The notes under the pieces were generated by a model. That model did no database searches. It was not told where the DNA came from and saw nothing but the letters and a program-made list of their open reading frames with translations. A DNA stretch of 64,000 nt from a virus. Below are positions 57,671 to 58,041 of the stretch, piece after piece; within the stretch, counting starts at the first letter, position 1; every line of letters begins with the position of its first letter. A program made the translations under genes and the position numbers. The stretch lies in UHGV virus genome UHGV-0179803, one strand, 5' to 3'.

Positions 57671-57757
57671 TTATGGCGACATGCAAAAGACACCACAAAA
57701 TAGGGTGACACACACCACTATAGCCAGTATGACCAACCATACATCCAAAGGTTTCAT
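57671..57757 (-). CDS. tiny hydrophobic ORF (28 aa)
   Basis: MKPLDVWLVILAIVVCVTLFCGVFCMSP; co-oriented, 16 nt downstream of the previous small ORF. Confidence 0.25.
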   Translation of the reverse strand: MKPLDVWLVILAIVVCVTLFCGVFCMSP

Positions 57758-57773
57758 AATCAGTAATCAGACC

Positions 57774-57932
57774 TCACTGGAAAGTTGAGATAATGCTTAA
57801 GAGCAGGATTAAGACACCACCGATCACAGTGTACAGGAAAAGCCCACCTGCGGCATCGACCAGTTCTTGTACAAAGTGGTTTTCAAATTGCTTATCACGC
57901 AACCGAAAGAACAAATCTATTAACTTTTTCAT
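57774..57932 (-). CDS. small membrane ORF (52 aa)
   Basis: MKKLIDLFF...LFLYTVIGGVLILLLSIISTFQ; starts 4 nt after the stop of the upstream small ORF. Confidence 0.3.
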   Translation of the reverse strand: MKKLIDLFFRLRDKQFENHFVQELVDAAGGLFLYTVIGGVLILLLSIISTFQ

Positions 57933-57936
57933 AGGC

Positions 57937-58041
57937 TTACATCAGAAATAAGAAAGTGTATAATAACATTTCCAACCCAGTGGCAGCATATACCATGAGC
58001 AATATAGCAATAGCTGCCATGAGAACATCATCTTTTGTCAT
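57937..58041 (-). CDS. tiny hydrophobic ORF (34 aa)
   Basis: MTKDDVLMAAIAILLMVYAATGLEMLLYTFLFLM after GAGGATG; the longer track ORF 57937..58128 would overlap tRNA-Met. Confidence 0.3.
   Translation of the reverse strand: MTKDDVLMAAIAILLMVYAATGLEMLLYTFLFLM

Follow-up and report, generated by a model that had tools for sequence, protein, structure and literature searches.

The described systems that come closest to the locus treated here include two kinds of membrane protein. The first comprises Imm and Sp of phage T4, small, non-essential inner-membrane proteins of superinfection exclusion that are served by host-type promoters and encoded in variable accessory regions; Imm has 83 amino acids (aa) and two transmembrane helices, and Sp has 97 aa. 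The second comprises bacterial microproteins such as AcrZ, MgrB, MgtS and PmrR, which are 30-50 aa long, span the membrane with one helix and act by binding a larger membrane protein. With respect to genomic surroundings, the hyperplastic regions of T4-like phages hold short, variable genes, with promoter/terminator motifs as the sites of shuffling (PeSLs; Comeau et al. 2014, PMC4122927). Here, we describe three tiny open reading frames (ORF1, ORF2 and ORF3) at positions 57,671-58,041 of the virus genome UHGV-0179803, of which the whole 64,000-nucleotide (nt) stretch analysed is called the window below. Comparison of related loci shows that all three are, to judge by how their codons have changed, genuine protein-coding genes under purifying selection and that they form a fixed-order, dispensable accessory cassette specific to an uncultivated clade of rV5-like gut phages. 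Each codes for a microprotein in which a single transmembrane helix is predicted. The surroundings of the cassette are highly rearranged, and it follows sigma-70-type promoters, in most cases with transfer RNA (tRNA) genes immediately before it.

The first-pass annotation of the window had reported three co-oriented minus-strand ORFs of 34, 52 and 28 codons, with gaps of 4 and 16 nt, lying between a tRNA cluster and an autotransporter-like gene. These lengths and spacings are exact, and so is the placement, with the tRNAs at 58323-58080 and a gene with a YadA anchor at 57584..56013. The three ORFs are:

58041..57937, minus strand: ORF1 (34 aa), or 39 aa if started at the ATG at 58056 (57937..58056)
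57932..57774, minus strand: ORF2 (52 aa)
57757..57671, minus strand: ORF3 (28 aa; MKPLDVWLVILAIVVCVTLFCGVFCMSP)

ORF1 may begin 15 nt beyond the end first reported (58041). The longer start, which adds up to a 39-aa protein (MRMPVMTKDDVLMAAIAILLMVYAATGLEMLLYTFLFLM) opening with MRMPVMTKDD, has a Shine-Dalgarno site (GAGAGGTG) 7 nt upstream of the ATG at 58056 and is the choice of most gene callers in the relatives.

Whether the reading frames are conserved in related genomes was checked in a set of 15 non-redundant loci, that is, the window together with L003-L006, L020, L022-L024, L029-L033 and L035, the relatives coming from gut and other metagenomes. ORF1 occurs in 9 of these loci, ORF2 in 14 and ORF3 in 12, always in the order 1-2-3 and always intact; none of the copies has an internal stop, and most of the alternative frames are interrupted by stops. 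Mean pairwise proportions of synonymous (pS) and nonsynonymous (pN) differences were 0.37 and 0.066 for ORF1 (pN/pS 0.18), 0.31 and 0.070 for ORF2 (pN/pS 0.23), and 0.55 and 0.096 for ORF3 (pN/pS 0.18), and variable sites at codon positions 1, 2 and 3 numbered 9/9/16, 17/9/29 and 15/5/21 in the same order of genes. In most pairwise comparisons, permutation tests found amino-acid changes far below those of randomly placed substitutions, including every ORF1 pair (P <= 0.004). Start codons are preserved as ATG or TTG, stop positions are conserved, and Shine-Dalgarno sites, which precede ORF1 and ORF3 in every locus, change together with their context. Further, gene callers had independently called ORF1 (39 aa) and ORF2 (51-55 aa) in public assemblies, and ORF3 once (29 aa). 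The check thus favours real genes, and the suggestion that the ORFs might be chance products of sequence composition is rejected because the frames have stayed open under purifying selection (pN/pS 0.18-0.23), with variation concentrated at third positions. Hydrophobic mini-ORFs arising from composition alone are uncommon in the window, not rare: among 287 ATG-started ORFs of 25-60 aa in its six frames, 14 reach a 19-residue Kyte-Doolittle mean of 2.0, and ORF1-3 are three of these 14.

The best 19-residue means are 2.08 for ORF1, 2.53 for ORF2 and 3.01 for ORF3, and this hydropathy, together with single-helix AlphaFold2 models for ORF1 and ORF2, supports the prediction of single-pass membrane proteins. 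The description of each protein as essentially one hydrophobic helix needs correction for ORF2, whose first 29 residues are polar and which is hydrophobic only at residues 30-50. ORF1 opens with a short polar stretch (MRMPVMTKDD), and its other 29 residues form a hydrophobic helix, modelled as one helix over residues 8-38 with a predicted local distance difference test score (pLDDT) of 92. Its C-terminal half, YAATGLEMLLxTFLFLM, which combines a small-residue motif with a buried intramembrane glutamate (Glu29), is invariant in 17 sequences (pN/pS 0.07); the family counts 14 homologue clusters. ORF2 is predicted to have a tail-anchored architecture, in which residues 1-29 (MKKLIDLFFxLRDKQFENHFVQELVDAAG) are polar and near-invariant despite synonymous variation (pN/pS 0.12) and the C-terminal transmembrane tail varies among hydrophobic residues (pN/pS 0.35); AlphaFold2 models it as one continuous helix (residues 2-51, pLDDT 82). 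In ORF3, a head of the form M-[KE]-P-[LI]-D leads into a single transmembrane helix that closes with a conserved Cys-rich motif, CGVCCMS(P); the ORF starts with ATG or, in some relatives, with TTG behind AGGAGG. Its usual size is 27-28 codons, with a single extension to 74 aa (L020). None of the three proteins has charged residues at its C-terminus (ORF1 ...TFLFLM, ORF2 ...ISTFQ, ORF3 ...FCMSP).

We also considered ORF3 as a lipoprotein, taking as the criterion a lipobox, [LVI][ASTVI][GAS]C, that closes a signal peptide and has a mature domain behind it. In the ORF3 of the window, G, A or S never comes directly before a Cys, and only 3 residues follow the last Cys, which led us to reject this assignment. 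The possibility that it is a truncated lipoprotein was rejected as well, since the lipobox-bearing 74-aa form of L020 (MSG|C followed by a 46-aa mature part) is a singleton and the 27-28 codon form is the conserved one.

The signals that would govern expression of the cassette are the following:

58348..58377, minus strand: sigma-70-type promoter upstream of the tRNA cluster (TTGACA-18-TAAAAT, 11/12 matches)
58080..58323, minus strand: genes for tRNA-Arg(CCT), tRNA-Thr(TGT) and tRNA-Met(CAT) (ARAGORN and Rfam RF00005)
57634..57662, minus strand: sigma-70-type promoter of the next gene (TTGACA-17-TATATT with TG extension)

The first of these promoters is the probable start of a transcript carrying the tRNAs and ORF1-3: the ATG at 58056 lies 23 nt from the end of the last tRNA, and no terminator-like site was found between the promoter and ORF3. 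Among the relatives, too, a sigma-70 consensus promoter stands upstream of the cassette, usually with one to four tRNA genes between it and ORF1, and in L020 (4569-4596) and L024 (3136-3163) the equivalent place holds a perfect TTGACA-16-TATAAT promoter. The promoter at 57634..57662, conserved in L006 (7206-7234), marks the 3' boundary of the cassette; in L024 a terminator lies directly 3' of ORF3. Within the transcript, translation of ORF2 is probably coupled to that of ORF1. We infer this because the spacer between the two is the same 4 nt, GCCT, in 9/9 loci, because ORF2 has no Shine-Dalgarno site where it starts 4 nt past the ORF1 stop and has its own (AAGGGG or AGAGGA) where ORF1 is missing, and because L006 and L033 have another membrane ORF there, of 66 aa, whose stop shares an ATGA with the ORF2 start. 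Such a signature of translational coupling argues for co-production of the two proteins. Some relatives have extra tiny membrane ORFs at fixed places, namely a 66-aa ORF before ORF1/ORF2 and a 22-aa ORF between ORF2 and ORF3, and some have a soluble 79-aa protein (PHROG 4448) nearby.

Promoters of this type are strongly over-represented in the window as a whole, with 4 perfect TTGACA-N15-18-TATAAT sites vs. 0.07 expected by chance:

22594-22622 and 24012-24040, plus strand: perfect sigma-70 promoters in the structural module
55531-55558 and 62123-62151, minus strand: perfect sigma-70 promoters

The two in the structural module have a spacer in common, AAAAAG.GA.AGTACAATG.T, and this points to a strong-promoter element that is repeated. 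The T4-type late promoter (TATAAATA) is not enriched (1 site in the window vs. 1.9 expected), and none is found near the cassette.

The cassette occurs in at least three genomic contexts:

Context A (the window): flanked by a conserved gene pair (163 aa/60 aa) on one side and by the end of the tail-fibre module on the other
Second context (L020, L023): after RNase-T/HNH genes and tRNAs
Third context (L031): after DHFR/ThyA/ATP-cone genes

Its accessory status follows from its losses: in L004 the 60-aa gene is followed directly by two small membrane ORFs (TM61/TM46, below) and the whole block of ORF1-3 is absent, and in L003 and L035 ORF2 alone is retained. No ORF2 motif was found anywhere in the 118-kb contig of L004, and a scan of the whole of IMG/VR with ORF2 motifs returned only four contigs, that of L004 not among them. 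In L005 a gene is inserted between ORF2 and ORF3. Turnover of the region, driven by deletion, is illustrated by two database proteins, P0026 and P0042, in which ORF2 residues 1-29 are fused to something else; the partner in P0042 is a YadA anchor, and the junction has AAG (Ala-Ala-Gly) microhomology with the adhesin gene. These two fusions are independent, and both break exactly after Gly29 of ORF2 (codons 27-30; window 57840-57850), where the DNA, GCAGGTGG, differs at a single base from GCTGGTGG, the Chi site of E. coli; the position may be a recombination hot spot, or this may be coincidence. As a separate observation, L020 (6604-7165) and L031 (4342-4778) each have four consecutive ORFs of 39-56 aa that encode a short charged head and one transmembrane helix (e.g., MKKDVKKELEAIDGACTVLGIILAISALMLMFLLFSGLD), so that arrays of tail-anchored microproteins seem to be general in this phage clade.

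Database searches returned no family for ORF1 or ORF2 in PHROGs or Pfam at E <= 1 and, for ORF3, only weak PHROG matches of unknown function and a far-sub-threshold match to Pfam Collectrin; none of the three matched an NCBIfam, PADLOC or PDB profile. Neither ORF1 nor ORF2 was found by tblastn in 50,697 phage records, ORF2 had chance matches only among plasmids (E = 6), and the cassette DNA had no match in 5,426 E. coli genomes. When a hidden Markov model profile of ORF2 was run against 1.84 billion representative proteins, it returned its own cluster, P0026, P0042 and one spurious repeat protein, and no remote homologues. ORF1-3 are hence new orphan families in a previously undescribed cassette, which is nonetheless a familiar kind of phage accessory gene.

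The window itself is from an uncultivated, metagenome-assembled, rV5-like (Vequintavirinae-related) phage. The assignment rests on a protein 83% identical to a conserved rV5 protein, encoded in a plus-strand structural module at about 4-55 kb, on an rV5-type arrangement of two spanin genes, one for the inner membrane (i-spanin) and one for the outer (o-spanin), directly upstream of a split large-terminase gene, and on the entries in nr with the exact ORF1 and ORF2 sequences (DAM57227.1 and DAM57216.1, 'MAG TPA: hypothetical protein [Caudoviricetes sp.]'). At the DNA level, cultured phages are similar in the tRNAs only, with about 80% to rV5-like phages, and megablast of 24 kb against cultured phages returned nothing. 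The large-terminase gene is split on the plus strand into 7102-8217 and 9455-10534 by an insert with two small Cys-rich/HNH-like ORFs (8743-9036 and 9054-9338), resembling the intron/endonuclease interruptions annotated in rV5-like phages (inoa, LL12). A single tRNA-Arg(TCT) gene lies at 5900-5975.

Taken as a whole, the locus would be best explained as a co-expressed inner-membrane microprotein module that acts on the host envelope, a reading to which we assign a probability of roughly 0.6. Specifically, host RNA polymerase would transcribe the cassette within the tRNA transcript, and ORF2 would be made by termination-reinitiation coupled to ORF1, or to the small membrane ORF that replaces it, so that the two are produced jointly. 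All three proteins would insert into the host inner membrane, ORF2 as a tail-anchored protein with its invariant 29-residue N-terminal helix in the cytoplasm, and ORF1 with an invariant intramembrane face (AATG, Glu29) that may mediate helix-helix contacts. Jointly, ORF1-3 may constitute a small inner-membrane module that alters a function of the host envelope and confers a conditional advantage during infection.

Several points weigh against this reading. Transcription, translation and membrane insertion of ORF1-3 are inferred from the anatomy of the locus, and the function proposed is argued by analogy, the three having no homology to characterised proteins. Sigma-70-type promoters occur in the structural module too, so early timing is not established, and the charges flanking the helices are about zero in all three proteins, so their topology is not fixed by the positive-inside rule. 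Most of the relatives belong to a narrow clade, and several come from one metagenome, which means that the sequences are not independent samples. Finally, members of the cassette are lost separately, as the loci with ORF2 alone attest, contrary to an obligate three-subunit complex.

As to what such an envelope module would do, the first-pass annotation had offered holin/antiholin, superinfection-exclusion and membrane-stress roles, and exclusion or modulation is compatible with the data. Superinfection exclusion, or the blocking of incoming DNA, is a possibility that we put forward tentatively by analogy with described systems, and it seems about equally likely that the proteins bind a host membrane protein and modulate it, as AcrZ or MgrB do. 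A more ambitious and rather improbable version is that ORF1 and ORF2, made in fixed proportion by way of the invariant 4-nt junction between them, would assemble with ORF3 into a new kind of hetero-oligomeric inner-membrane complex, a viroporin or a DNA-entry block built of subunits below 55 residues, with the ORF2 helix docked on a conserved host target and the whole travelling as a mobile, tRNA-linked module.

Alternatively, ORF1-3 could be membrane-damaging toxic peptides, similar to type I toxins or viroporins, that depolarise the host membrane for host shut-off. Lengths of 28-52 aa, a single transmembrane helix and a conserved charged residue (Glu29) inside the helix of ORF1 are indeed reminiscent of small pore-forming toxins. 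We nevertheless consider this unlikely, since NCBIfam, Pfam and PADLOC gave no toxin-family match and the soluble, invariant 29 residues of ORF2 point to a particular binding partner and not to general damage of the membrane. A type I toxin-antitoxin arrangement in particular was rejected: the sole antisense promoter-like site (57936-57964, plus strand) is not conserved, its -10 element matching at 6/6 positions in the window and at 2-5/6 in the relatives, and, besides the lack of a toxin family, the Rfam scan returned no antitoxin RNA at threshold.

Slightly less likely still is a role of ORF1-3 in lysis timing, as a holin/antiholin or a related protein whose accumulation in the inner membrane triggers or delays hole formation and endolysin release. 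What lends this idea some appeal, apart from the tandem arrangement of small transmembrane proteins, is that the holin of rV5-like phages is still unidentified (PMC6658697; Certrevirus is discussed in PMC7344957) and that the spanin pair of the window has neither a holin nor an endolysin alongside:

6408-7102, plus strand: i-spanin (133 aa, N-terminal transmembrane helix) and o-spanin (98 aa, lipobox LVGC), with a 4-nt overlap

A holin is essential, however, and yet none of the three ORFs is present in L004, and ORF2 alone persists in L003 and L035; likewise, the family is absent from all cultured Vequintavirinae. Further, none of the three proteins carries a hydrophilic, charged C-terminal tail or matches a holin family (Pfam, PHROGs), and the cassette sits in the tRNA/sigma-70 transcription unit, about 51 kb from the spanins, with no endolysin adjoining. 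The holin part of the earlier proposal is therefore disfavoured, and the cassette is not the essential lysis holin. The 61-aa membrane protein and the 41-aa hydrophobic ORF that had been reported downstream were located at 55499..55314 and 55305|55290..55165:

55499..55314, minus strand: TM61, a small membrane ORF of 61 aa
55305..55165, minus strand: TM46, of 46 aa (41 aa from its second ATG)

The two are tightly spaced, with a perfect TTGACA-16-TATAAT promoter before them (55558-55531) and a bidirectional terminator after them (55113-55131), and the pair is found in all eight context-A loci that reach this far, one of them being L004, where ORF1-3 are missing. L029, L033 and L035 gave no match, nor did cultured phages (for TM61, by tblastn of the same phage records). 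TM61/TM46 is a unit separate from ORF1-3 and more strictly conserved, and TM61, with a transmembrane helix at its N-terminus and a tail of 30 residues that is amphipathic or charged, is on its predicted features a better holin-type candidate than ORF1-3.

The gene that follows the cassette, and lies outside it, raises the further idea that ORF1-3 are accessory factors for export or insertion of its product:

56013..57584, minus strand: YadA-like gene (523 aa; Sec signal peptide, coiled coils, YadA-like membrane anchor)

This protein matches Pfam PF03895 YadA_anchor (E = 4.7e-18) and PHROG 17426 'adhesin', and among close relatives the gene is full-length, N-terminally different, reduced to the anchor (L022), replaced, or absent (L004, L005). 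A virulent-type rV5-like phage that encodes a secreted coiled-coil protein with a YadA-like outer-membrane anchor, under a sigma-70 promoter of its own, is an observation in its own right. Trimeric autotransporters use Sec and BAM for export and do not depend on inner-membrane partners of their own. A helper role is very improbable and largely refuted: the cassette does lie immediately upstream of the adhesin-like gene in the window, L006, L003, L022, L029 and L035, but the adhesin gene has its own promoter, and the cassette also occurs without any YadA-like gene (L005, L020, L023, L024, L030, L031 and L033), so the proximity is incidental.

Equally improbable is that the ORFs are chance frames, a non-coding spacer or an RNA element, or, for ORF3, the leftover signal peptide of a decayed lipoprotein gene; open antisense frames of ORF1 and ORF3, a sub-threshold Rfam match to PhrS on ORF1 and the candidate lipobox of the extended L020 protein would fit such origins, but it is the sense frame that is under purifying selection, is most variable at its third codon position and owns the conserved starts, Shine-Dalgarno sites and stops, and the 74-aa form of ORF3 is a singleton among 5.8 billion clusters, the 27-28 codon form being found in 11 loci with a pN/pS of 0.18. 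PhrS of Pseudomonas aeruginosa is a dual-function small RNA that encodes a 37-aa peptide (PMC8395346), and the ORF1 region is similar to it in having a short transcript, a Shine-Dalgarno site and a hydrophobic ORF of about 37 codons. Membership in PhrS (Rfam RF01673) was rejected, however, as the score is 23.6 bits vs. a gathering score of 37, and the peptides of two Pseudomonas PhrS loci differ in architecture, having a basic C-terminal tail (WKDxxxRK) and no similarity to the ORF1 profile (hhalign probability 0.4%).

Two more small ORFs of the neighbourhood deserve mention. An 88-aa ORF (55687-55953, minus strand) has endonuclease-VII/HNH-like PHROG matches (phrog_26577, 8e-08; phrog_1035, 8e-07) and is kept beside the variable block in most context-A relatives; it is possible that it is a homing-type nuclease that contributes to regional turnover. 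A 47-aa ORF (59489-59632, minus strand), which stands directly before a strong terminator (59484-59459), has a signal-peptide-like N-terminus (MKMRIEVLALVAMGLVVLGVHA...) and is a candidate for a small exported or membrane protein.

Phage annotation routinely discards genes shorter than about 50 codons, and it is important to note that the three described here pass every comparative gene test. They clearly exemplify a microprotein cassette with translational coupling that moves with tRNA genes through a highly rearranged region, and they no longer count among the candidates for the holin that rV5-like phages should have. As a result this is useful and unsurprising, small accessory membrane proteins being common in large lytic phages; if its target came to light, the cassette could point to a new means by which large, virulent viruses of the coliphage type modify the inner membrane of the host or keep competitors out.

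Compared with known systems, the tandem encoding of small membrane proteins is also seen in phage holins and antiholins (lambda S105/S107, T4 T/RI), from which the cassette differs in being dispensable, in its uncharged C-termini, in its position outside a lysis cassette and in having no family match. The surrounding region is like the hyperplastic regions of T4-like phages in its short, variable genes, its strong early-type promoters and its terminators, and its insertions, deletions and relocations among close relatives; it is unlike them in belonging to an rV5-like lineage, in that no shared composite PeSL motif has been demonstrated, and in junctions that include within-gene microhomology (P0042). 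With Imm and Sp, ORF1-3 share the features of small, non-essential membrane proteins of a large virulent myophage behind host-type promoters, although Imm and Sp are two to three times larger, and no match connects the two groups in Pfam, in PHROGs or, for ORF1 and ORF2, in the tblastn search. From AcrZ, MgrB, MgtS and PmrR they are set apart by the lack of sequence similarity, by being phage-encoded and by their tricistronic arrangement; nonetheless, the ORF1 face and the N-terminal ORF2 helix, both invariant, are in keeping with the model of a specific partner that these bacterial microproteins exemplify.

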